Source of the DNA: an uncultured Acidobacteriota bacterium | Lineage (GTDB): Bacteria > Acidobacteriota > UBA6911 > RPQK01 > JAPXNP01 | DNA: 64,000 nt | Assembly (NCBI GenBank): GCA_963777605.1 | Contig: CAVZRV010000007.1 | Coordinates: forward strand, 800,001-864,000 | Reading direction: 5' to 3' | Part shown: in pieces, positions 4,485 to 57,546 of the stretch | How positions within the stretch are numbered: position 1 is the first letter of the stretch | Layout: each line of letters begins with the position of its first letter | Translations under genes and position numbers: made by a program | Notes under the pieces: generated by a model | Seen by the model: the letters and a program-made list of their open reading frames with translations, nothing else | Told to the model about the DNA's origin: nothing | The model's database searches: none

Positions 4485-5396
4485 GTGAGCGTGCAACGCC
4501 TCGTCAACGAGTTCCTTGACTACGTAAAGTACGGGCGCAATTACTCGGCCCGGACGGTCTCTGCCTACCGCCGAGACTTGTCCGAGTTTCTCGCTCACCT
4601 TGGACAGGGGGCCGAGAACATCTCTCCGAGCCAACTCGACCACATCACGATCCGGGACTTCCTCGCCGAGTTGCAGGCACGTGGCAACTGCCGCTCTTCT
4701 GCGGCCCGCAAGCTCGCGGCCGTTCGTTCATTTTTCAAGTTCCTCCATCGGGAGGGGTACATCGCCCGGAATCCGGCCCGACTGGTGCGCACCCCTCGCC
4801 AACCTTCGCGCGATCCCCAGTTGCTGACGGAGAAGCAGATCGTAATGATCCTCGAACTGCCCGACTCCAAAACCCCCTTGGGACGGCGCGACCGTGCCAT
4901 GTTGGAACTCCTCTACGCAACAGGCATTCGGGTTTCTGAGATGACTTCCCTGAACCTGGCCGATTGCTCCCTTGGCGACCGACTGCTCAAGGTGCGAGGA
5001 AAAGGGGCCAAGGAACGCATCGTCCCGTTCGGCGAGCCTGCCCGATTGACCCTGGACGATTACCTTCCCGCCCGATCCGGCATCCTTTTGAAGGCCCGCT
5101 CGGCCACGGAACCTGAGGCGCTCTTTCTCAACGCTCGGGGAGGACGCATCACAGCCCGATCGGTTGAGCGAATCCTGCGGGATTATGCTCTACGCGGCGC
5201 CACGCTGCTTCACGTCCACCCACACCTGTTTCGGCACTCCTTCGCAACCCATCTCCTTAACCGGGGTGCCGACCTCCGTGCCATCCAGGAACTCCTCGGG
5301 CACGAAAGTCTGTCCACAACCCAGAAGTACACCCACTTGGCCCTCGACGAACTCCTGCGTGCTTACCGGAGTGCCCACCCCCGGGCTGGACGGTAA
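4485..5396 (+). CDS. xerC: Tyrosine recombinase XerC
   Basis: RDRAMLELLYATGIRVSE, GKGAKER, HPHLFRHSFATHLL, QELLGHESLSTTQKYTH; 303 aa. Confidence 0.85.
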   Translation: MSVQRLVNEFLDYVKYGRNYSARTVSAYRRDLSEFLAHLGQGAENISPSQLDHITIRDFLAELQARGNCRSSAARKLAAVRSFFKFLHREGYIARNPARLVRTPRQPSRDPQLLTEKQIVMILELPDSKTPLGRRDRAMLELLYATGIRVSEMTSLNLADCSLGDRLLKVRGKGAKERIVPFGEPARLTLDDYLPARSGILLKARSATEPEALFLNARGGRITARSVERILRDYALRGATLLHVHPHLFRHSFATHLLNRGADLRAIQELLGHESLSTTQKYTHLALDELLRAYRSAHPRAGR

Positions 5397-11402: not shown

Positions 11403-13163
11403 TTGAAGAAGCTTGATTCCGACTTTGTTGAACGTGTCCGGTTCGCCGTGAACATCGTGGACCTGGTGGGAAGCTACGTCAATCTGCGCAAGCGGGGCCA
11501 AAACTACGTGGCGTTGTGCCCGTTTCACCAGGAGAAGACCCCCTCCTTTTCGGTCAATGAGAGCCGTCAGATCTTCAAGTGTTTCGGCTGCGGCGAGGGT
11601 GGGGACGCATTCGCATTCATTCAGAAGGTCGAGAACCTGACCTTTCCAGAGTCGATTCGTTTCCTGGCGGAGCGGCAGGGCATTCCTCTTCCCGATTCCG
11701 GGTCGGAGACAACCCAGGAGGGAAAGGACCGGGAGCGGTACCTGGAGATAATGCAGAAGGCCGCAGCCTTCTTTCGCGAGCAATTGGCGCGCAGCCGGGA
11801 GGGCCTCAGCTATCTTGATGGAAGGCAGATCGACCAGGAAACACGTGCAACGTTTGGAATCGGCTTCGCTCAATCGGGAAGCGCCTTGCTCCGGCAATTC
11901 CGCTCCGATGGAATCTCTCTTGCCGACCTGGAAGCATGCGGGCTGGTCTCTCGCAGCGAATCGGGGGAGCCCTATGACAAGTTCCGCAGCAGGGTAATCT
12001 TTCCCATCAAGAACCTCTCGGGAAAGACCATCGCCTTCGGCGGCAGAATTCTTGGTGACGGGCAACCAAAATACCTAAACTCCCCTGAAACCCTTCTCTA
12101 TTCCAAGGGCCATAATCTCTTCGGCCTTCACGCCGGGAAAGACGCCATCCGCAAGCAGGGGTTTGCCGTTCTGGTGGAAGGGTATTTCGACTGCATCGTT
12201 CCTTATCAGCACGGGGTACGGAACATCATCGCATCGTTGGGCACGAGTCTGACCGAGGGCCAGGTCCGCCTCATCTCTCGCTACACTCGTCGGGTTGTGG
12301 TGAATTTCGACCCTGATTCAGCCGGAATCTCCGCAGCGTTGCGGTCCATCGACCTCTTCCTTGAACAAGGTTTCCAGGTCAACGTGCTGCGCCTTCCCTC
12401 GGGAGAAGATCCCGACTCTTTCATTGTCAACCACGGAGTCGAGGAGTACCTGAGGGTGCTCAAGGAATCTTCTCCCTTCGTCGACTTTCTGCTGGCCCAT
12501 TTTCTCTCCCAACAACGCGATCCGCAGAGCCCCAATGGGAAACAGGAGGTAATTGACAAGCTCCTTCCCTTTATAGCCAAACTGCCCCACCGGGTGGAGC
12601 GGGCGGAGTACGTTTCCAGGGTGTCATCGCGCCTCCTGGTGGATGAGGAAGTCCTGGTCGGGGAACTGCGCAAGTATTCACGCGCACCACAGAGGCAGAG
12701 GCAGAAGCAGTTGACGATTAGCGCGGTGCGCACGGTCGCAGTGGAGCCGACCCTGGCGGAGAAATCGCTCTTCGCGGCCTGCCTTGACGAAAATACCTGG
12801 GAATTGGTGCTGGCTCTGGCCGAAGCATCCATGTTCGAAGGGCTGGCGACCGGGACCCTCTTCCGGGAGATTTTCGCGATCCGGAAACAAAACGAACATT
12901 TCGACATCTTTAAATTGAGAGAGCGGTTGGAGGGCGACGACCTTGATCTCTTCGATCGACTTTCTGTAACTTCGTCAGAGCTTCAGGTGTCGGACGAAGA
13001 GATCAGGCAGTGTGTCGAGGCCATTGGCGATTTGGCACTCAATCGCGTGAGCCGACAAATCCAACAGGAGATCGCTCAGGAAGAGAAGAGCGGGCAGACT
13101 TCAGAACGGCTCGAAGAACTGCTTCGGAACAAGGAACTTATTCAGCGTCGGCGACGTCGGTGA
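11403..13163 (+). CDS. dnaG: DNA primase
   Basis: Zn finger [11 protein letters not shown]...[17 protein letters not shown], Toprim VEGYFD and DPDSAG. Confidence 0.98.
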
Positions 13164-13245
13164 CTGCTTCCGGGATCTCCTGAACCACCCGAATTGTGTC
13201 CTCCCTCGTGAGAGGCTTGAATTTTGTATAATTAGAGGTCTGCGC

Positions 13246-14979
13246 ATGGACCAGGATAACGAAGATCTGCTTTCAGAAATTGAAGACAAGTACGACGGCG
13301 TAAAGGAACTCCTGTCTGCGGGGAAAGAAAAAGGCTACCTCCTCTACGACGAGGTGAACGATTTTCTGCCCGACGACATTCAGTCCTCTGAAGATCTGGA
13401 CCAGATCTTCAACCTCTTTGGGGACGCCGGCATCGAAGTCATCGACTCCGAAGACGACTTCGAGGTCATCAAGAAGCGCGCCCGGTCGCGCACCACCTCG
13501 GACGATGACGATGGAGATGAGCCCAGCACCCCGTCGGAGGATTTGGAGAAGACCAACGATCCCGTCAGGATGTACCTCCGGGAAATGGGTACCGTTCCAT
13601 TGCTCACCCGGGAAGGTGAGGTCGAGATCGCCAAACGTATTGAGCGGGGAAAGAAGACCGTTCTCAAGGCGATTTCCCGCTCCCCACTCGTGGTCAACGA
13701 AATTCGCCAATCCGTCAACCTGCTTTCCGATCCGGATTTCAACCTCAAGAACCTGGTGAATTTCTCGGAAGAGGAAATCACCGAAAAGGTTATTGAGAAT
13801 CGTCGCAAAGAGCATCGGACCCAGATTTCGAAAATCTCCGAACTGGAAGAGCAGTCGAACAAGCTGCGTTCTCAACTCCGCAAGGCCCGGCGCGGTTCGT
13901 CCGAGCACGGAGCCTTGACCACGAAGCTGGCTCGGTACCGGATTCCAACCGCCCGCTTGATTCGTGACCTCGATCTTACGGCGGAAGTGCACGAACAATT
14001 GGTCGGCAAGATCAAGAGCGTAGTCGAAAACGTCATGACCCTGGAACGGGAGGCAAAGCGACTGCGCAAGCTGCAGGAGTCCCCCCTGAAGCTCGAAGAG
14101 TCGAAAAAGATTAAGCTTCGACTCAGGGAGATCGAGAAAGAAGTCAAGGAACTGGAGGACAACGCGATCGCGTCGTCCGGCGAGCTGAAAAGGACCCTCG
14201 CTACGATCAAGCAAGGGGAACTGGAAGCCGACATTGCAAAGAAGGAACTGGTTGAGGCCAATCTCCGGCTGGTCGTATCGATTGCCAAGAAGTACACGAA
14301 TCGGGGACTTCAGTTCCTGGACCTGATCCAGGAAGGCAACATCGGGTTGATGAAGGCCGTCGACAAGTTCGAGTATCGGCGTGGTTACAAGTTCTCCACT
14401 TACGCTACCTGGTGGATTCGGCAGGCAATCACCCGGGCCATTGCCGATCAGGCCCGCACGATCCGTATCCCGGTACACATGATCGAAACGATCAACAAGC
14501 TGATCCGGACCTCGCGAGCGCTGGTTCAGGAACTCGGGCGTGAGCCGACCGCCGAGGAAATTGGCGAGAAGATGGACATGCCCGCCAGCAAAGTGCGGAA
14601 GATTCTGAAGATTGCGCAGGAGCCGATCTCGCTCGAGACCCCGATTGGCGAGGAAGAAGACAGCCATCTGGGCGACTTTATTGAGGACCGGGGAGTCGTG
14701 TCCCCGTCGGAGTCGGTAATCAACCTTAACCTGAAGGAGCAAACCGCAGCTGTACTCCAGAGCTTGACCCAGCGGGAGGAGCAGGTCATTCGCATGCGTT
14801 TCGGGATTGGCGACGGCAGCGAGCACACGCTCGAAGAAGTCGGCCAGCGCTTCTCTGTGACGCGGGAACGGATTCGGCAGATCGAAGCCAAGGCGCTTAG
14901 AAAACTGCGCCATCCTTCCCGGAGCCGAAAGTTGAAAGCTTTCCTAGAGGCGAACGGCAAGGAAGGCAACATGCAGTAG
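13246..14979 (+). CDS. rpoD: RNA polymerase primary sigma factor RpoD
   Basis: [74 protein letters not shown]. Confidence 0.99.
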
Positions 14980-21959: not shown

Positions 21960-21985
21960 TGGTCCGTTCCCGAAGTGACCACTAG
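21956..21985. repeat. 30-bp CTAG-bounded palindrome related to the 62-bp element
   Basis: CTAGTGGTC-N12-GACCACTAG; each terminal CTAG holds the stop codon of one flanking convergent gene. Confidence 0.55.
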
Positions 21986-22491
21986 AGCGAAAGTCCAAGT
22001 CGGTTCAGCAGCTTGGGAGAGATGAGCCAGTTCAGTGTGCCGCAGCCCGGCCCGCAGTTCTCCCAACGATCAAGGGCGAGTTTGACCCAGGCGAGAGAGG
22101 AGGTGGGTAGTTTGAAGCTTCCGCCTCCGACTACCGCACTCAGAAAATCTTCCTGGCCAGGGTTGTGCCCGACCAGGATGACCCGGTCGAGGTCGTCCGG
22201 GAGCCTTCGGATGAATTCCTGGATGCCTTTTCGGTCGGCCAGGTAAAGCCGCTTCTCGAACTCGGACGGACACCCCCACTTGCCCGATTCCATGGCGAGC
22301 TCCAATGTATGCCGCGCGCGTTCGGCCGAACTGGAGTAGGCAGCCTCAGGGACTATTCCTGCCGCCGAGACAAACTTGCCCATCAGTCGCGCCGCTTCCA
22401 GACCCCGACTGGCCAGAGGCCGATCGTGGTCATCCTTGAGCGCACCTTTCCAGTCGGATTTCGCGTGTCTAAGAAGTCCCAATTCTTTCAA
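21982..22491 (-). CDS. SixA-like histidine phosphatase
   Basis: LLRHAKSDW..DHDRPL, SSAERARHT, LVGHNPG. Confidence 0.88.
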   Translation of the reverse strand: MKELGLLRHAKSDWKGALKDDHDRPLASRGLEAARLMGKFVSAAGIVPEAAYSSSAERARHTLELAMESGKWGCPSEFEKRLYLADRKGIQEFIRRLPDDLDRVILVGHNPGQEDFLSAVVGGGSFKLPTSSLAWVKLALDRWENCGPGCGTLNWLISPKLLNRLGLSL

Positions 22492-22538
22492 AATGCGACT
22501 CTCCTCTCTGAATCTGAACCGAAAAACCAGGCCCCGTC

Positions 22539-22547
22539 TGCTAGACT
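22539..22547 (+). promoter_or_regulatory. Putative extended -10 promoter of ppk1
   Basis: TGcTAGACT about 70 nt upstream of ATG 22619; GGAGG SD before the ATG. Confidence 0.4.
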
Positions 22548-22618
22548 ATGAGCGTGTCAGCATTCGAGAACGCTGATTTTCCCGTTCCAAGTTCATCCAA
22601 CCGGAGGCTGCGACTGCC

Positions 22619-24769
22619 ATGCCGACCAAGAACCGGGCAAAAGAGGTGGCTGAAAACCACCGCAAGTCAAGCAGCCCTAATCTAAATCACCAAACCTATT
22701 ATTTCAATCGCGAGCTGAGCTGGTTGGAGTTCAACCGGCGGGTCCTTTCTGAGGCCCTGGACCCCAAGATTCCTCTCCTGGAACGAGTTAAGTTTCTCGC
22801 GATCTTTTTCAGCAACCTCGACGAGTTCTTCATGATCCGGGTCTCCGGGCTGAAACGGCAGTTGACGAGCGGAGCGCTGAAGCCCCCTCCCGACGGCCTG
22901 ACCCCGGCCCAGCAATTGAACCGGATTCGAGACGAGGTGCTCCCCCTGCTCGACACGGCGGAACGCTGCTGGCGCGAACAGTTGCAGCCGATGCTGTGCG
23001 AGCAAGGAATCCGCGTGGTGCCACACGCGTCACTGCGGAAGAACCAGATCCGACTCCTTCGAAGGCACTTCACTCGGGAGGTATTCCCAATCCTGACTCC
23101 CCTGGCTTTTGATCCGGGTCATCCCTTCCCCCACATATCGAGCCTCAGCGTCAATCTGGCCGTGATCGTCAAAGATCCGAAGCTCGGCAGACGGTTCGCG
23201 CGACTGAAGGTTCCCCACATCCTGCCTCGCCTGATTCGGGTTCCCAACGCCAAAGAGGAGGCTGACGGACAGAGAGAGGGGCTTGACGAAGCCGGCTCCA
23301 TCGAACTGGTCTGGCTCGAGGAACTGATTGCTGCCAATCTCGATCTGCTCTTTCCCGGGTTGGAGGTCGTCGCCGTACACCCGTTCCGGGTCACAAGAAA
23401 TGCCGACGTTGAGATCGAGGAAGACGAAGCGGCGGATCTCCTCGAGGCCGCCAAGGAGATGGTCGGACAGCGGCGCTTTGGATTCGCAATCCGACTTGAA
23501 GTCGATCCTCGCATGCCAAAAGAGTTCTTGAGCATCCTGGTAGGAAATCTTGACTTGGCATCCTATCAGATCTATCTCACCGAAGGTCCGGTCGGTCCGA
23601 CCGATCTCATGCAGTTGACCGGGCTCGACCGGCCCGATCTCAAAGATCCACCGTTTCAACCGGTTGTGCCCGCCCTACTGACGACCGAGAAGAACATCTT
23701 CTCGGTTATCCGCCGGCGGAATGTCCTTCTTTACCATCCCTACGACAGCTTCAGCCCGGTCGTTGATTTCATCCGGCAGGCCGCTCACGACCCGGACGTC
23801 CTGGCGATCAAGCAGACACTCTATCGGGTTGGTCCCAACTCGCCGATCGTTCGCGAGCTCAAAGAAGCCCGGGAAAACAACAAGCAGGTGGCCACACTCG
23901 TTGAACTTAAAGCTCGCTTTGATGAAGAGAACAACATCGAGTGGGCCAAGGAACTGGAAGATGTTGGGGTCCACGTAGTCTATGGGCTCCTCGGACTCAA
24001 GGTCCACTGCAAGATGTGCATGGTGGTGCGGAGGGAACGCGAAGGACTGGTCCGCTACGTCCATCTCGGAACCGGGAACTACAACCCGGTCACGGCCAGG
24101 ATCTACACTGATCTGGGTCTGTTCACGTGCGATCCGGAAATTGCTTCCGACGTGGCCGACCTGTTCAATGCCCTCACCGGGTATTCACGTCAAAGGAAGT
24201 ACCACAAGCTCCTGGTCGCTCCCGAGTTCATGCAGGAAGCGATGATCTCCAGGATTCACCGGGAGATTGAGACTCACAAGAAGCACGGCAACGGCCACCT
24301 GGCCTTCAAAATGAACGCCCTCGTGGACAAGTCCTGTATCCGGGCGCTGTACCAGGCATCGCAGGCCGGCGTCCGCGTAGACCTCCAGGTTCGCGGCATC
24401 TGTTGCCTGAAACCGGGCGTTCCCCGCGTGAGCGAAAACATCCGAGTCACATCAGTTGTGGGACGCTTCCTGGAGCACACTCGCATTTACTACTTCCACA
24501 ATGGAGGCAACGAGGAGATCCTCCTCGGCAGCGCCGACCTGATGCCCCGAAATTTGAAGGGCCGCGTGGAAGTTCTCTTTCCGCTCGAGGAAGCCACCAT
24601 CAAGCAGGCGCTCCGCGACGAAATCCTCCAGGTCCACCTGCGGGACAACCACAAGTGCTGGGAACTTGATCCCGACGGAACCTACCGCAAGATGTCACCC
24701 GGACCTTCCGAGGAGGGAGTTGACTCCCAGCAGCTTCGCATCGACCACCCGGGAAGCTGGCATGGCTAG
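22619..24769 (+). CDS. ppk1: Polyphosphate kinase 1
   Basis: FNRELSWLEFNRRV, NLDEFFMIRV, HPFPHIS, IKQTLYR, ELKARFDEENN, LKVHCK, GTGNYN, GRFLEH, SADLMPRN. Confidence 0.98.
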   Translation: MPTKNRAKEVAENHRKSSSPNLNHQTYYFNRELSWLEFNRRVLSEALDPKIPLLERVKFLAIFFSNLDEFFMIRVSGLKRQLTSGALKPPPDGLTPAQQLNRIRDEVLPLLDTAERCWREQLQPMLCEQGIRVVPHASLRKNQIRLLRRHFTREVFPILTPLAFDPGHPFPHISSLSVNLAVIVKDPKLGRRFARLKVPHILPRLIRVPNAKEEADGQREGLDEAGSIELVWLEELIAANLDLLFPGLEVVAVHPFRVTRNADVEIEEDEAADLLEAAKEMVGQRRFGFAIRLEVDPRMPKEFLSILVGNLDLASYQIYLTEGPVGPTDLMQLTGLDRPDLKDPPFQPVVPALLTTEKNIFSVIRRRNVLLYHPYDSFSPVVDFIRQAAHDPDVLAIKQTLYRVGPNSPIVRELKEARENNKQVATLVELKARFDEENNIEWAKELEDVGVHVVYGLLGLKVHCKMCMVVRREREGLVRYVHLGTGNYNPVTARIYTDLGLFTCDPEIASDVADLFNALTGYSRQRKYHKLLVAPEFMQEAMISRIHREIETHKKHGNGHLAFKMNALVDKSCIRALYQASQAGVRVDLQVRGICCLKPGVPRVSENIRVTSVVGRFLEHTRIYYFHNGGNEEILLGSADLMPRNLKGRVEVLFPLEEATIKQALRDEILQVHLRDNHKCWELDPDGTYRKMSPGPSEEGVDSQQLRIDHPGSWHG

Positions 24770-24827
24770 TGTCCCGTCACGCATCATATGACGATTTCAG
24801 AGCCCCGGATGCGTGACAGGACACTAG
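24766..24827. mobile_element. 62-bp MITE/REP-like palindromic element, copy 1
   Basis: CTAGTGTCCCGTCACGCATC-N22-GATGCGTGACAGGACACTAG (19/20 inverted repeat); homologous copies at 28683 and 40220. Confidence 0.75.
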
Positions 24828-25567
24828 CGGGCCTTCGACTGGATCTCCTTCCAGAGTGCCTCAAAGGCTTTTGAAGGCGGGCTCGAGGCCGCAAAAACGG
24901 GAAGCGGAGCCCGGTGGATGCCCATCTGTTCCACCTGGCTGGAGTAAGGGATCTTGCTCGTCAGGAATGGGAGCGGCCTGTCAGGAGGGTTGTCAACGGT
25001 TTCCCGATGCAGGGTCTTACGCCGGTCAACCATGCTGAAAAACGGCCATGCCTTCCCTGCGTTCAGGTTCTGTTTGTCCATGAAATCAGCAATCAGATCG
25101 AGCGACCTGAGGGAGAGAGGGGTCGGGATGGTGGGGATCACGACCAGGTCGACCGAGTGAAGAAGCGCCTCCGAGACGATTGAAAGACCCGGGGCGCAGT
25201 CGATGATGACGGTGTCATATTCGCGGCTCAACGTCTTCAGGATTCGCTGAATGCGTTTGAAGGCATCGTCTTTCTTGCTCAGCACCAGATCGAGCTTTCG
25301 GTAGGAGAAGTCGCCGGGAAGCAAATCAAACCCGGGAAAGTCGGTTCCGCGAATGTACTTGTCGAGGTCGGTCTTCTTCTTGACCAGCTGTTTGCCGCCA
25401 CCCGCGATCCGGGCCTGAATTCGGAGGTAGAAGGTAGCCGACGACTGCGGGTCCAGGTCCCACATCACGGTCCGGTTGCCCGCCGTAGAAGCCAGATAGG
25501 ACAGGTTGACCGCCGTTGCGGTCTTGCCCACGCCGCCCTTTATGCTGTATACCGCGATTGTCGCCAC
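24824..25567 (-). CDS. ParA/MinD family ATPase (orphan, downstream of the CHAD gene)
   Basis: GTG start 10 nt after the CHAD stop with GGGGGA SD; deviant Walker A YSIKGGVGKT, WDLDPQSSAT, IIDCAPG, PTIPTPLS. Confidence 0.9.
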   Translation of the reverse strand: MATIAVYSIKGGVGKTATAVNLSYLASTAGNRTVMWDLDPQSSATFYLRIQARIAGGGKQLVKKKTDLDKYIRGTDFPGFDLLPGDFSYRKLDLVLSKKDDAFKRIQRILKTLSREYDTVIIDCAPGLSIVSEALLHSVDLVVIPTIPTPLSLRSLDLIADFMDKQNLNAGKAWPFFSMVDRRKTLHRETVDNPPDRPLPFLTSKIPYSSQVEQMGIHRAPLPVFAASSPPSKAFEALWKEIQSKAR

Positions 25568-25577
25568 CTTGTTCCCC

Positions 25578-27140
25578 CTAGTCGACGCGATTCCGCCGTC
25601 GCGTAAGCTCCTTCTTGAGTACCTTCTTCCTCGATCGGTTCGCGAACAGGTTGAATCTGTCGCTGAAGTACCGTCGCAGCGCCTGTTGACTCGTTTCCAT
25701 CTGCTCGAGGAGACGCCCCGCAACGAGGAAAGTCCGGGCGGGGATTTCCTTTTCAGCCCAGGCCTCATCGACGTAGGTCTTCAGGTTCTGGTACTGGACG
25801 TGACAGTCATTGAAGTCCCCCAGAATGTCCTGGAGTCCTTTCAAGTCGCTGATCAACCCACTCATGAGTGGCCGCGGGTACAGGCTCTTGAAGAACTCGA
25901 GCAGATACCGCAGCTTCTTGCAGTCGATTCGCAGCTGGTGAAGCAGCCGGGGCTCCGCCGATGCGCTCAGTCCGGCGCCCTCCCGGAGGATCCTTCTATA
26001 GATCTTCCAGATCTTCGGCGATGCCAGCTCGTAGACCGTCTCCCGGCCTCGATCGGCGCGAAACGATTCCTCCCGGTGCAACGCATTGTCCCAGTCCGAG
26101 ACAAGTTCCCGGTAGCGGGCGCCGCGAATGAGTGCCCCCAGCCGTTCCCCTTCCACCTGCTGCCGGTGTCGCAGCAGTTGGATCAGTGGCGCCAGATCTT
26201 CGGCTTCCTCGACAACGCGCCGTGCCTTCAACTGCTCCAGCTTGATCAGGAAGACATCCAGGTCTCGCTTCTTACCCGTTGACTGACCCAACCACCGAAA
26301 CTCTTCATTGAAGCTTTCCAGGAGCTGTGGGTCGAGGTGCTCTTTGGACCTACTCAAGAGCGCCCGGGTTCGTCGCACGGAAACTCGAAAATCATGAAGG
26401 AATTCCGGGTCCAGCTCCGAACAGACTCCCGCTTCGTTGATCCGCATGGTGCCGAGGAGCTGCAGGAAGAGCAACCTCAACGCTGCCGCAGCGGGCATTG
26501 CCGGCTCCAGCTGAAAGTTGAGCTTCGAGGAGTAGTCAAGCGGGGTTTCCCCCGAAACGTACAGCGCCGCCTCGAAAAATGGCGCCCGAACGGGTTCGCC
26601 AGAGAGGTCTCCGACCAGATCGGTCAATTCCCGGTGCACCGCTTCGAAACCCCGAACCGGGAGCACGCGCACCCACTGCGGCAACGCCCTCGACTTCTTG
26701 TTCCGGAACGTTGCCCGAACTCTTCCCTCCAGCAGGAGCAGAATGGCGGTGACCTTCTCTCGTTCATCCAGGATACGCACTTCCCAACCCGAGTAGTTCA
26801 AGGTCAGCCGGTGAAGCAGGCGACGCACACCCACCGCGTTCTCAATACGCTTGCTGAGTGGGGATGGCTCAAGATCCGAGCAGAACGAGGGGGGACGCGC
26901 CTGACTCACGGATGCAACGGTCTCGCCTCCGAGGCGGGCCAGGGAAAGCACCGCCCCAAGCTGAGAAGACTCCCACCTCAGGGCAAGCCCGTTGGAAAAA
27001 AGCCCCCAGTCGAAACTGTCCAGGTAGAGTTGGCGGCGCTCCGGAATGTGCGTGACCGCCACTTTGAACGATTGGGCGACGTGCGCAATCAGGCTTTCGG
27101 GATCTCTATCGATACTGAAAAGTCGTTCCTGGAAACTCAT
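25578..27140 (-). CDS. CYTH-like plus CHAD domain protein (polyphosphate-binding type)
   Basis: N-terminal YLDSFDWGLFSNGLALR; CHAD motifs DPEFLHDFRVSVRRTR, RDLDV, LHQLRIDCKKLRYLLEF, LQDILGDFND. Confidence 0.88.
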   Translation of the reverse strand: MSFQERLFSIDRDPESLIAHVAQSFKVAVTHIPERRQLYLDSFDWGLFSNGLALRWESSQLGAVLSLARLGGETVASVSQARPPSFCSDLEPSPLSKRIENAVGVRRLLHRLTLNYSGWEVRILDEREKVTAILLLLEGRVRATFRNKKSRALPQWVRVLPVRGFEAVHRELTDLVGDLSGEPVRAPFFEAALYVSGETPLDYSSKLNFQLEPAMPAAAALRLLFLQLLGTMRINEAGVCSELDPEFLHDFRVSVRRTRALLSRSKEHLDPQLLESFNEEFRWLGQSTGKKRDLDVFLIKLEQLKARRVVEEAEDLAPLIQLLRHRQQVEGERLGALIRGARYRELVSDWDNALHREESFRADRGRETVYELASPKIWKIYRRILREGAGLSASAEPRLLHQLRIDCKKLRYLLEFFKSLYPRPLMSGLISDLKGLQDILGDFNDCHVQYQNLKTYVDEAWAEKEIPARTFLVAGRLLEQMETSQQALRRYFSDRFNLFANRSRKKVLKKELTRRRNRVD

Positions 27141-53947: not shown

Positions 53948-53959
53948 TGTCCCGACTAG
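53944..53959. repeat. 16-bp remnant of the 62-bp element
   Basis: TTAGTGTCCCGACTAG matches the element's left end joined to ACTAG; both ends hold stop codons of convergent genes. Confidence 0.55.
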
Positions 53960-56900
53960 AAGCGGGCCGAGACAACCTTGGAAATTCCAGGTTCTTCCAT
54001 CGTGATCCCATACATGGCGTCCGCCGCCTCCATCGTGCGCTTGTTGTGGGTCACGACGATGAACTGGGTTTCCTTACCCATTTCAGAAATCAGCCCATTG
54101 AACCGCTGAACGTTGGCATCGTCCAGGGGTGCGTCCACCTCGTCGAGCACGCAGAATCGACTGGGGCGGTACATGAAGATGCCAACAAGGAGCGCAAAGA
54201 CAGTAAGCGCTTTCTCACCCCCGGAAAGAAGCATCACATTCTGAAGCCGCTTTCCCGGCGGCTGGGCGTAGACGTCGATGCCTGCTTCCAGCACATCCTC
54301 GTCATCGAGCAGCGTCATCCCGCACTCGCCCCCGCCGAAAAGCTTCTGGAAAACGTCCTTGAAGTTTCGGTTGACGATTTCAAATGCTTCGCTGAACCGG
54401 GCCCGGCTCCGGCGGTTGATCTCCTGGATTGCGCTCACAGTGTCCCTGATCGACTTTTCGATGTCTCCCCGTTGCTGGGTGAGAAAGGTATGTCGCTCCA
54501 GGTTTTCCTGGTACTCCTGCAGCGCGGTCATGTTGATCGGCCCGAAGCTCTCGATGCGTCGCTTCAGTTCCTCGTAACCTTGCTTGACCTCTTCTTCGAC
54601 GACTTCTTCGACATCCACGTCTACGATCGCAGCGGCCAGTGAGAGACTAAGCTGATCACGGCACTGGTTCTCGAGATTCTGCAACTGCGTCTCAACGCGC
54701 GCCAACTCCACTTCGATCTTCGCGCGCTCTTCGCTCAGGGCATTGCATCGTTCCCTGATCTCCCCGAGCACCTGCTCCTGTTCCCGCAGGACGTCCCGAC
54801 AACTCCGGTACCGCTCCTGCAGTTCCTCCAGCTGAAGCTCAACCGCTCGACGGTCTTCTTTCAGGTGAACAACCGACTCATCCAGAGCCCAGATGGACGC
54901 TTCCAGTTCCTCGGTTCGCCGAAGATTTTCCGCTTCCCTCTTCCCGATCGCTTCGAGACGGTGTTCGGCATCCTTCTCCTGGGACTGAATCCGGGAAACA
55001 GTTCGACTGATCGAAACCCGGCGCTCTTCCAATACTCGCCGTTGCGAGAGGGCCGCATTGGCTTCATCCTGAAGCCGAAGGAGGAGATCGCGCATGTCGG
55101 CCTGAGCTTCCCGGCCCACCTGCAGTTCGGCACCGGCTTCGGCCTGAATCGTCTCCTGTGTCTTCAGCTGGATGGCCAGCCCTTCCAACCGGGCCTGCAC
55201 TTCGCGCAGATCGACTTCCAGTTGTTCCGTCTGCTGCCGGTTAGCGGCCAGCAGTCTCTCCTGTCGCCGGACTTCCTCTTCGGCCTGTTCCTGTTCGTGC
55301 ACCAGGCCGACCACTTCCATCTCCAACTGGTGGCGATGCGACTGCAGTTCTTCCCGCCGCGCCCGGGCATCTTTCAATTTCAGCTCCTTGGCCTCGCGCG
55401 CTTTCACAACTCGTGCCTTGGCCTTCTGCTGGGATTCGCATCGTTTCTCGAGTTCCCGGCGCTGACGCTTCAATCCCAACAGCCCGATCTTGGAAGGCCC
55501 GGCGGCAGAACTGGAGACCAGCCCCCGCGGAGTCAGGGACTCTCCGTTGAGCGTAATGAAGGTGCTCTCGGGGTAGCTGTGGGACAGCCCCATCGCCCGG
55601 TCCATGTCCGACACAACGATGGCATCGGCCTGCTTGGGCAGGACCCGGCGGAACGCATCTTCAATCTCGGGCCTCATCTTCAGAACACCGGCCAGGGTTC
55701 CGTAGACACCCTGGGTTCGGTCCGGAAGGTTCCGGGGTGCCAGCGGTTTCGCTCCCTTGCCAAACCCATTCGTACTGAAAATGCTCAGGAAGGTGCACTT
55801 TCCGGACTTGAGAGATCGCACCTCCGAAACTCCCCTGACCGCCTCGTCCAGCGAGTCCACAAGGATGTACTCGAGTTCTTCGTCGAGAAACTCTTCGACC
55901 AATGTCTCGAACTCAGCTTCGGTCTCGATCGAGTCGGACAGGGTCCCCGCGATCCCGATTGACTGAGACTTGGTGAGGTGGCTGAGAACGTTCCGGACAC
56001 CGTCGCTGTAATTGGACCGACTCAGTTCGAGTTCCTGCAGAGACTGCAGGCGTTCCTTGAGAGCCACCAACTGGTTGTTGACCTGGCCTTCCTCTTCCAC
56101 CAGCGCCTGCAACAGCTCCGCGAAGCTCCGCACCTGCTCCCGGCTCCCCTCAAGATCGATCTCAACTGCCGAGAGCTTTTCCTTCCGACCACACAGACTC
56201 TCCTGCTTTGCAGCCTCGCGCAGTCGAGCATCCTGTAACCGCTGCTCTCCCTGCCGCAGTTCATCAGCGAGTCGCGCCCGATCGGACTCGATCCTTCCCA
56301 CACTCTGCGAAAGCTGCTCTCCGAGGTTCCGCAAAGAAGCCGCCTCGGCGGTGGCGGCGATCAGCCGTGACCGCAACTCTTCCAACTTGCTTTCGGAGCT
56401 CTCGATTCGGGCACTGCAATCTCTAACTCGGGCCTGGGCCGCCTGTACCTGCTCTACGGAGGCCGACTCGTCCTCCCTGACCCTTGCCTCCTGCTCCAGG
56501 TAGCCACCGAGCTCCTCTCTCAGGCCGGCAAGTGCCTCATTGAGGGACTGCCGCTCGCCGGCAAGCGTCTGGAGGCTGGCTTTGAGCTGGTCGTGCTGTT
56601 GCCGCGAATAGCGGGCGGAGTTCTCGGCTCGATCCAGTTCGAGTTCGGTACTGGACCGACGTTCCCGCAACTCGTTCAGGCGACCTTCCAGAGCCTCCCG
56701 GGTTTGGTTCTTTTCGCGGAAGGCCGCTTCTTCTTCGCCGAGGCGATTCGACATCGAAGCCTCCGCCTGCCTGACTTCCTGGAGTTTCTGCGCCAGTCTT
56801 GCCAACTCCACCGTGAAACGGTCTGACTCAAACCTCAGCCGCAGCCGCTGAACGCGCCGGTACTCCTCCTTGAGCTTTTTGTAGACCTTCGCCTTGCTCG

Positions 56901-57546
56901 CCTGCCGCTTGAGCGACCGCAACTGCCGCTCAACCTCAACGATGATGTCGTTGACCCGGAGCAGGTTCTGTTGCGCCAGTTCGAGTTTGAGCTCGGCATT
57001 CTTCCGCTTCGCCTTGTAGCCCGTAATCCGGGCAGCTTCTTCGATTATGGAACGACGGTCCAGCGGCTTTGCCGTCAAAAAGGAATCAATTCGGCCCTGG
57101 GCGATCATGGCATAGCTGGCAAACCCCAGGCCGCCATGATCCAGAAACTCCTGGATGTCCATCAGGCGGCAACGCCGTTTGTTGAGGAGGTAGGTACTCT
57201 CTCCGGAGCGGTAAAGCTTTCGCGTAACCTCGAACTCCGTGCCGGTGATTTCGACGCCGTCCACGCAAATCGGCTCTTCACTTGTGCGCGTGAGCGACAG
57301 GGTAACCTCGGCGAGGCCTGAAGGCTTCCGCTTCCGGGTCCCCCCGAAAATGAAGTCTTCCATCTTCTGGCCTCTCAGGTTTTTCGCAGACTGGGATCCG
57401 AGCACCCACCCGAGAGCATCAGAGAGGTTTGACTTGCCGCAGCCGTTGGGACCGATAACTGCCGTGATCCCGTCTGAGAAGGCGAGCCTCGTCTTATCCG
57501 CAAATGATTTAAATCCAGCGAGTTCCAGTGATTTAAGCTTCAACAT
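53956..57546 (-). CDS. smc: Chromosome segregation protein SMC
   Basis: GFKSFAD, GPNGCGKSN, coiled coils and hinge, LSGGEKA, LDEVDAPLD; 1196 aa. Confidence 0.97.
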   Translation of the reverse strand: MLKLKSLELAGFKSFADKTRLAFSDGITAVIGPNGCGKSNLSDALGWVLGSQSAKNLRGQKMEDFIFGGTRKRKPSGLAEVTLSLTRTSEEPICVDGVEITGTEFEVTRKLYRSGESTYLLNKRRCRLMDIQEFLDHGGLGFASYAMIAQGRIDSFLTAKPLDRRSIIEEAARITGYKAKRKNAELKLELAQQNLLRVNDIIVEVERQLRSLKRQASKAKVYKKLKEEYRRVQRLRLRFESDRFTVELARLAQKLQEVRQAEASMSNRLGEEEAAFREKNQTREALEGRLNELRERRSSTELELDRAENSARYSRQQHDQLKASLQTLAGERQSLNEALAGLREELGGYLEQEARVREDESASVEQVQAAQARVRDCSARIESSESKLEELRSRLIAATAEAASLRNLGEQLSQSVGRIESDRARLADELRQGEQRLQDARLREAAKQESLCGRKEKLSAVEIDLEGSREQVRSFAELLQALVEEEGQVNNQLVALKERLQSLQELELSRSNYSDGVRNVLSHLTKSQSIGIAGTLSDSIETEAEFETLVEEFLDEELEYILVDSLDEAVRGVSEVRSLKSGKCTFLSIFSTNGFGKGAKPLAPRNLPDRTQGVYGTLAGVLKMRPEIEDAFRRVLPKQADAIVVSDMDRAMGLSHSYPESTFITLNGESLTPRGLVSSSAAGPSKIGLLGLKRQRRELEKRCESQQKAKARVVKAREAKELKLKDARARREELQSHRHQLEMEVVGLVHEQEQAEEEVRRQERLLAANRQQTEQLEVDLREVQARLEGLAIQLKTQETIQAEAGAELQVGREAQADMRDLLLRLQDEANAALSQRRVLEERRVSISRTVSRIQSQEKDAEHRLEAIGKREAENLRRTEELEASIWALDESVVHLKEDRRAVELQLEELQERYRSCRDVLREQEQVLGEIRERCNALSEERAKIEVELARVETQLQNLENQCRDQLSLSLAAAIVDVDVEEVVEEEVKQGYEELKRRIESFGPINMTALQEYQENLERHTFLTQQRGDIEKSIRDTVSAIQEINRRSRARFSEAFEIVNRNFKDVFQKLFGGGECGMTLLDDEDVLEAGIDVYAQPPGKRLQNVMLLSGGEKALTVFALLVGIFMYRPSRFCVLDEVDAPLDDANVQRFNGLISEMGKETQFIVVTHNKRTMEAADAMYGITMEEPGISKVVSARF

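Follow-up and report, generated by a model that had tools for sequence, protein, structure and literature searches.

The 64,000-nucleotide (nt) window analysed here belongs to contig CAVZRV010000007.1 of an uncultured Acidobacteriota bacterium (assembly GCA_963777605.1), and all coordinates not otherwise labelled are positions in this window. On its minus strand, a gene for a ParA-type ATPase (24824-25567; 247 aa, GTG start; AAA_31 E 3e-29) directly follows a partner gene (25578-27140; 520 aa), which encodes a degenerate CYTH/triphosphate tunnel metalloenzyme (TTM) domain (residues ~2-197) and a long two-bundle CHAD domain (residues ~214-515; PF05235 E 4e-51, 175 bits). The conserved unit is this CHAD-parA pair and not the four-gene cluster with ppk1 and sixA in which it lies, and the ATPase belongs to a distinct, basic clade. 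From the sequences and predicted structures, the pair stands about an even chance of being an McdAB-like cargo adaptor and ATPase that spaces or partitions polyphosphate (polyP) granules. The pair is a two-gene candidate for the sizing, spacing and inheritance of polyP granules in bacteria; if the proposal is true, it would add a new cargo class to the ParA/MinD systems and give a function to phosins.

Conservation of the gene pair

Among 8,000 candidates scored, at least 7,972 were relatives of parA at E <= 1e-30. With an alignment as query there were 582 genome and 493 metagenome matches, and the 80 top-ranking ones of each set were taken as loci. In 63/80 genome loci parA is immediately preceded by a CHAD gene of the same orientation; in 3 a CHAD gene lies nearby in another arrangement, 13 show none and 1 has less than 1 kb of sequence before parA. 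The paired genome loci span eight named phyla, with 2 of the 63 unassigned to a phylum. In the metagenome set, 56/80 loci had this same-strand CHAD gene immediately before parA, 1 had another arrangement, 14 had none and 9 had less than 1 kb of preceding sequence. The pairing is far above chance. At the CHAD/parA junction the genes overlap by 4 nt in 70/117 measured loci and by 1 nt in 9/117, a count that excludes L088 (no Walker A match).

Of the 80 genome loci, 6 have ppk1 no more than 6 kb away, 11 sixA, 6 ppx, 5 ppk2 and 3 a CYTH-type match; any polyP-related enzyme was found at 17/80, and at 12/55 among loci of at least 10 kb. A preliminary description of this DNA had placed the pair inside a ppk1/sixA cluster. 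The pair itself is conserved across phyla and the ppk1/sixA context is local; the cluster was rejected as a conserved unit, with ppk1 in just 6/80 and sixA in 11/80 loci. The same description would have given up its idea if the ParA clade were not linked to CHAD across genomes, and this link proved to be tight, to extend over many phyla and to be reciprocal. ParA occurs in 13 of 41 near relatives, with a long CHAD gene adjacent in 13/13 and ppk1 adjacent in 4/13 (in this count G032 lies at a contig edge and the parA of G029 has an internal stop).

Two unselected genome samples were also searched; in both, kin are not independent, and partner-like matches are favoured because the profiles were derived from paired loci. 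Sample 1 (301 genomes of the window's phylum; ParA E <= 1e-55, CHAD E <= 1e-25) contained ParA in 16/301 and CHAD in 66/301 genomes. CHAD was present in 16/16 ParA-positive genomes and adjacent in 13/16, and the CHADs above 390 bits (n=12) were all in ParA-positive genomes, 11 of them adjacent. The twelfth, in G124, lies 1.2 Mb from parA, beside sixA, ppx and ppk1. Sample 2 consisted of 301 genomes of the class of locus L015 (Gammaproteobacteria), 300 of them scored for CHAD, with ParA in 41/301 and CHAD in 67/300. An adjacent CHAD accompanied 30/41 ParAs, 27 by profile and 3 as divergent stand-alone proteins, directly upstream, that were caught by Pfam alone; 3 ParAs had a partner elsewhere, 1 lay directly after ppk1 (G536) and 7 had no such link. 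CHADs of at least 499 bits were in ParA-positive genomes in 22/22 cases, those of 400-499 bits in 2/7. The unpublished genome G377 is included in the 67 CHAD-positive genomes and in the seven CHADs of 400-499 bits, and no claim hangs on it alone.

Fourteen of the 15 genome loci in which no CHAD gene adjoins parA on its upstream side were traced into their genomes. One of the 14 and the fifteenth (L064 and L068) have a stand-alone CHAD beside parA. The full partner is kept away from parA in 6/6 Methylococcales genomes (591-636 bits), and a separated partner is also retained in G124 and G455. The separated partners of the Methylococcales adjoin sixA-like genes (5/6) and pstS-like genes (6/6), as labelled from motifs and not by family search. 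G335-G337 contain unrelated CHADs only, and the partner profile found no CHAD in G331-G334.

On the Paracoccus marcusii plasmid pCP157_03 (L204), phoU-phoB is followed by CHAD-ParA-CYTH-NUDIX-CYTH, and ParA occurs on five further Paracoccus plasmids. An actinobacterial branch (L024, L029, L054, L063, L079, L095 and others) has a conserved 167-aa open reading frame on the same strand, ~750-1250 nt past parA, at 15 loci. In one branch (L126:5636-5989, L128:5528-6001, L131:2345-2752) the upstream place of the CHAD gene is taken by an overlapping gene whose small, helical product is rich in lysine (20-27% K), matches no Pfam family and is possibly an alternative polyP- or DNA-binding partner. Partner-less ParAs of the clade adjoin a long-chain acyl-CoA ligase-like gene in L227, L233 and L235 (AMP-binding confirmed in L227), and another, on a Marinobacter plasmid (L203), has phbB close by.

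The CYTH-CHAD partner protein

The AlphaFold2 (AF2) model of the partner has a predicted local distance difference test (pLDDT) value of 94.7. The closest solved structure to its CHAD domain, the predicted polyP-binding part (25596-26501, minus strand), is that of CtCHAD from Chlorobium tepidum (Q8KE09; 3E0S; Z 32.0, root-mean-square deviation (rmsd) 1.9 Å, 29% identity), for which PDB entries 6QV7 and 6QVA also exist. The two proteins share their length (522 and 520 aa) and fold. Ten of the 12 polyP residues mutated in CtCHAD are kept or still basic (H249, R252, R256, R292, K379, R382, R383, R411, Y412 and K434), and the equivalents of R385 and R438 are lost (W378, S431). In CtCHAD the CHAD domain starts at residue 208, and residues 208-522 alone were studied; according to the available text of that paper, the CHAD proteins tested bound polyP and not DNA or RNA, and CtCHAD assembled with polyP into dimers and larger oligomers (PMC6537752). 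The word 'ATPase' does not occur in the same text (PMC6537752). For CHAD proteins generally, the texts available name no job besides polyP binding (PMC13556221, PMC10892726), and one of the two CHAD proteins of Pseudomonas aeruginosa is reported in the granule fraction (PMC9239181). The likeness to CtCHAD argues strongly that the CHAD domain of the partner binds polyP, and suggests that it would coat polyP granules.

The N-terminal part (26550-27137, minus strand) has no Pfam match; its earlier labelling as CYTH-like is supported by the predicted structure. Residues 2-197 match the TTM structure 2gfg (VIA Z 14.3, rmsd 3.2 Å, 172 residues), with Z 12-14 over the TTM structures, which points to a tunnel fold, and the domain scores 0.94 to CYTH clusters in the ESM Atlas. 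The N-terminal ExExK motif, which we take to be the metal-binding motif of active CYTH/TTM enzymes (intact in L175 and in 15 fused domains), is absent here and was found in 0/89 partners and in 3/14 other CHAD proteins. Loss of ExExK was rejected as a partner-specific trait, as 11/14 other CHAD proteins are likewise without it.

The domain carries the subfamily-specific features DxFDW, K129 and PVRG(Y/F). Partner-specific residues are F43/W45 and Y165 (88% versus 0/14 other CHADs; F in the window protein), and above all K129 (codon 26756-26754, minus strand), present in 98% of 89 partners versus 0/14 other CHADs. The AF2 model places K129 at the tip of a beta-hairpin between strands 109-124 and 130-143. 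K129 is kept in 8/8 partners separated from ParA and replaced (Q, Q, R) in 3/3 partner-like proteins of ParA-less genomes, two of the three being close kin; an exception is G186, without K129 despite an adjacent parA. This contrast is the best hint that the CYTH barrel faces the ATPase.

The ParA-type ATPase

The KGGVGKT-family motif residues K10, K15, T16, D37, D39 and D123 (deviant Walker A, Walker A' and Walker B) are invariant in 78/78 clade members and mark the ATPase as catalytically intact. Both stretches highlighted at the outset are present, KGGVGKT at 10-16 and the basic VDRRKTLHRE at 180-189. The AF2 model (pLDDT 85.6) has Soj/ParA as its closest folds (TM score 0.81-0.86, ~25% identity), ahead of FleN, FlhG and BcsQ, and no NCBIfam family attains its cut-off for the protein. 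The clade has invariant residues of its own (R90, E133, H187, E213, M215 and W239; also R154 and R219) and a basic Lys/Gly loop at positions 48-57. The net charge is +9 here, with a median of +6 over 72 partnered members, 93% of which are net positive, and -4 for the genome's own Soj; the isoelectric points are 9.6, 9.3 (clade median) and 5.45, respectively. Alignment and model show no C-terminal amphipathic membrane extension of the MinD/FlhG type, as the chain ends with a helix (230-246) and no conserved extension follows.

For Soj we assume that R189 belongs to a D-x-R motif and R218 to a PRNVRL motif. The first of these arginines is kept in the clade as R183 (96-100%), within D181-R-R-K-x-x-H187. 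Both arginines matter for DNA binding by Bacillus subtilis Soj, in the text available (PMC3778016). With one arginine kept, the other lost, no membrane helix and a basic charge, DNA binding would be plausible, though of a non-canonical kind, with polyP binding as the alternative.

Phylogeny, fusions and covariation

In a FastTree phylogeny of 122 proteins, a long stem (support 0.85) leads to the clade; members that lack CHAD are scattered within it at several points, and the deep branches are poorly supported. Family distances of ParA and partner correlate (r 0.67 over 78 pairs). Mutual information between the two proteins over the same number of pairs gave no interpretable signal, as the top pairs fell in variable columns and shuffles reached z 5.8-6.9.

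Fusions were surveyed in the 120 best longer matches, which comprise 75 ParA-CYTH(-like) fusions, 13 with SBP_bac_3, 10 with HAD and 19 joined to CHAD. ExExK is kept in 15 and lost in 60 of the 75 ParA-CYTH fusions (P0123-P0241). As all of these lie in one branch of the tree, they represent about one event, and since L030 (5086-6825) has the fusion plus an upstream CHAD, the fusion is to a downstream CYTH gene and is no substitute for CHAD. The CHAD-ParA 'fusions' (19/120) were rejected as evidence, because most of them contain a linker of out-of-frame junk sequence, as frameshifted assemblies typically produce where the genes overlap; the reading is clean in P0141, P0145 and P0149 but indistinguishable from the effect of single-base errors.

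Comparison with known systems

The pair resembles McdA/McdB in consisting of an orphan ParA-fold ATPase with an intact deviant Walker A motif, a basic surface and no membrane helix, next to a dedicated partner gene in a genome with its own parABS. It differs in that the partner is a folded CYTH-CHAD protein of 520 aa that lacks a basic peptide at its N-terminus, the cargo would be an inorganic condensate, and the ParA is only 21-22% identical to McdA. Chromosomal ParA/Soj is the best structural match and shares the D-x-R arginine, whereas parB and parS are missing nearby, the PRNVRL and CEYYALEG-type motifs are replaced and identity to the genome's own Soj is about 23%. AlgP of P. aeruginosa likewise serves even polyP granule spacing, but is a histone H1-like DNA tether, unrelated in sequence and without an ATPase. 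In the available text of a review, AlgP is the sole factor named for polyP granule placement, and the use of ATP there is an open matter (PMC13052382).

The same gene neighbourhood, folD-ppk1-parA-CHAD, is already in print for Acidithiobacillus; the parts of these papers available treat parA as a gene for plasmid or chromosome partition and suggest no function shared with CHAD (PMC10892726, PMC6416229). The Acidithiobacillus CYTH domain is described there as keeping its active-site residues (PMC10892726, PMC6416229). The words 'polyphosphate' and 'granule' are absent from the accessible text of PMC11407121. The literature search, which covered passages of running text, retrieved no paper assigning a role to the CHAD-ParA pair; its novelty may be affected by figures, supplements and subscription papers (for example, that on phosins).

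Proposed mechanism and alternatives

The proposed granule-spacing mechanism starts from the observed conservation and co-inheritance of two proteins that both keep their key residues. The CHAD domain would coat polyP granules, as its close homology to CtCHAD suggests. The non-catalytic CYTH domain may, with moderate support, contact or stimulate the ATPase through the K129 hairpin and the PVRGY loop. In the most conjectural step, an ATP-bound, basic ParA dimer would sit on the nucleoid via D181-R183-K184/H187/R219 and be stripped off near granules, so that a gradient would hold the granules apart. Known partners of the A/D ATPases act through a basic or charged N-terminal stretch, as far as the available text goes (PMC10241942), and the K129 hairpin is a candidate substitute for such an activator peptide. 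Residues to target are K10, D39, R183 and R219 of ParA and K129 and H249/R252/R256 of the partner; cultured hosts with the pair include P. marcusii (pCP157_03), Prauserella muralis and Sedimenticola selenatireducens.

Several observations weigh against granule spacing by the pair. The second Soj arginine motif, PRNVRL, is replaced clade-wide by IPY(S/A)SxVE (PYSSQV here). Alignment and model show no basic N-terminal peptide in the partner, whose N-terminus is a barrel strand without a conserved basic stretch, and the CYTH domain is not required for pairing, because eight ParAs adjoin a CHAD without the K129 CYTH part. Raw counts of the ParA loop 48-57 against the long partner (score of at least 6 of 8) were 77/81, 0/8 and 4/17; the link is unsupported in independent pairs (5 pairs; 0.8 same, 1.0 opposite), so that the tracking may be shared descent. 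The pair is also rare, its ParA occurring in about 5% (16/301) and 14% (41/301) of the sampled genomes. Of 10 ParA-positive genomes searched with Pfam, 6 yielded no CHAD (G331, G332, G334, G387, G536 and G562), although these genomes may be incomplete; ParA can apparently be maintained by itself, an argument against an obligate adaptor. Members of the clade also occur fused with or next to unrelated domains, namely amino-acid-binding SBP_bac_3 (P0159-type, 13) and HAD/sucrose-phosphatase-like domains (P0157-type, 10), and some partner-less members lie beside genes for pyruvate kinase, aat, acyl-CoA ligases or small Lys-rich proteins. Granules can, moreover, be spaced without the pair, via AlgP in Pseudomonas according to the text available (PMC9239181, PMC13052382), and in Synechococcus elongatus polyP spacing is described as independent of McdAB in the accessible part of PMC13556221. 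Deleting phosins, according to the same part, frequently leaves granule formation little changed (PMC13556221).

Three other explanations were weighed. The surface used by ParA could be polyP itself, in place of DNA or membrane, the ATP dimer coating the granule via basic patches until the CHAD partner strips it; granule size, fusion or enzyme access would then be set, with or without movement. This is unlikely in our estimate. It would account for the strongly basic clade, for the lack of both the PRNVRL arginines and a MinD membrane helix, for the clade's own R90, R154, H187 and R219 with the Lys/Gly loop, for the CYTH tunnel domain fused in 75/120 longer matches and for the one copy directly after ppk1 (G536). 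DNA binding fits equally, however, with R183 kept and K184 and H187 in the same stretch; basic charge cannot separate polyP from DNA, and the CYTH fusions amount to about one event. A regulatory switch of polyP or phosphate metabolism, comparable to FleN or BcsQ and without positioning, could instead act on the CHAD scaffold, PPK1, Ppx, a CYTH triphosphatase or SixA. The phosphate-enzyme neighbours (sixA, ppk1, ppx and ppk2), the phoU-phoB context of the Paracoccus plasmid, the partners in trans beside sixA-like and pstS-like genes and the ExExK kept in 15/75 fused domains speak for such a switch, yet the sole partner that stays constant is non-catalytic and a predicted granule binder, 63/80 loci have no polyP enzyme within 6 kb and the closest folds are those of Soj/ParA; we consider it doubtful.

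It is quite improbable that the genes are merely co-expressed, the proteins having no mutual action and ParA placing other cargo or having drifted to other uses. The genomes with ParA and no detectable CHAD and the unrelated neighbours of partner-less members would suit that explanation, but the overlapping codons are conserved across phyla, both genes are retained after separation with K129 intact, K129 is lost where ParA is absent, and the family distances correlate. A more far-reaching reading, which we hold to be unlikely, is that the pair is the first ATP-driven polyP-granule machine; in the boldest form of this reading, the ParA would be the first ParA/MinD ATPase to work on a polyP surface instead of DNA or membrane, switched by a pseudo-enzyme CYTH domain with K129 replacing the N-terminal activator peptide.

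Locus and genome context

The four genes (sixA-like, ppk1, parA and CHAD) are present and arranged as first described, with agreeing family matches and coordinates. The sixA-like histidine phosphatase gene (21982-22491, minus strand; His_Phos_1; TIGR00249 sixA E 7e-11, under the family cut-off) is divergent from ppk1 (22619-24769, plus strand; TIGR03705, 864 bits), a local neighbour outside the conserved pair. The 10-nt spacer between CHAD and parA (25568-25577, minus strand; GGGGAACAAG) confirms the gap stated in the preliminary description; of the Shine-Dalgarno sequence claimed there, only a weak GGGGA remains. A 20-bp interrupted inverted repeat lies over the convergent ppk1/parA stop codons (24765-24828; -38.5 kcal/mol, z -6.2, 0/200 shuffles as good). 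It has a U-tract on neither side and is likely a shared terminator or an RNA-stabilising hairpin for ppk1 and parA. The promoter and terminator scan of the locus gave a result at chance level.

No parS was found in the window, as stated earlier, and no parB at the parA-CHAD locus; the regular parA-parB-parS of the source genome lies outside the window on the same contig (C7:932-936 kb). The statement that the window holds no replication gene was wrong. Its core genes include dnaG (11403-13160; dnaG-rpoD 11403-14979), smc (53959-57546) and a gene for a XerC/D-type recombinase (4485-5393); since dnaG is 11 kb and smc 27 kb away from the cluster, this error has no bearing on the pair. The source genome (96.7% complete) contains one CHAD gene, a single ppk1 and ppk2-like genes elsewhere, and no match to Ppx/GppA was found in it. 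As ppk1 and ppk2-like genes are present and a Ppx/GppA match is absent, polyP breakdown may use other enzymes. A second orphan ParA-type ATPase of ~280 aa (C7:493939-494778; AAA_31 127 bits) belongs to another clade and has no adjoining parB.

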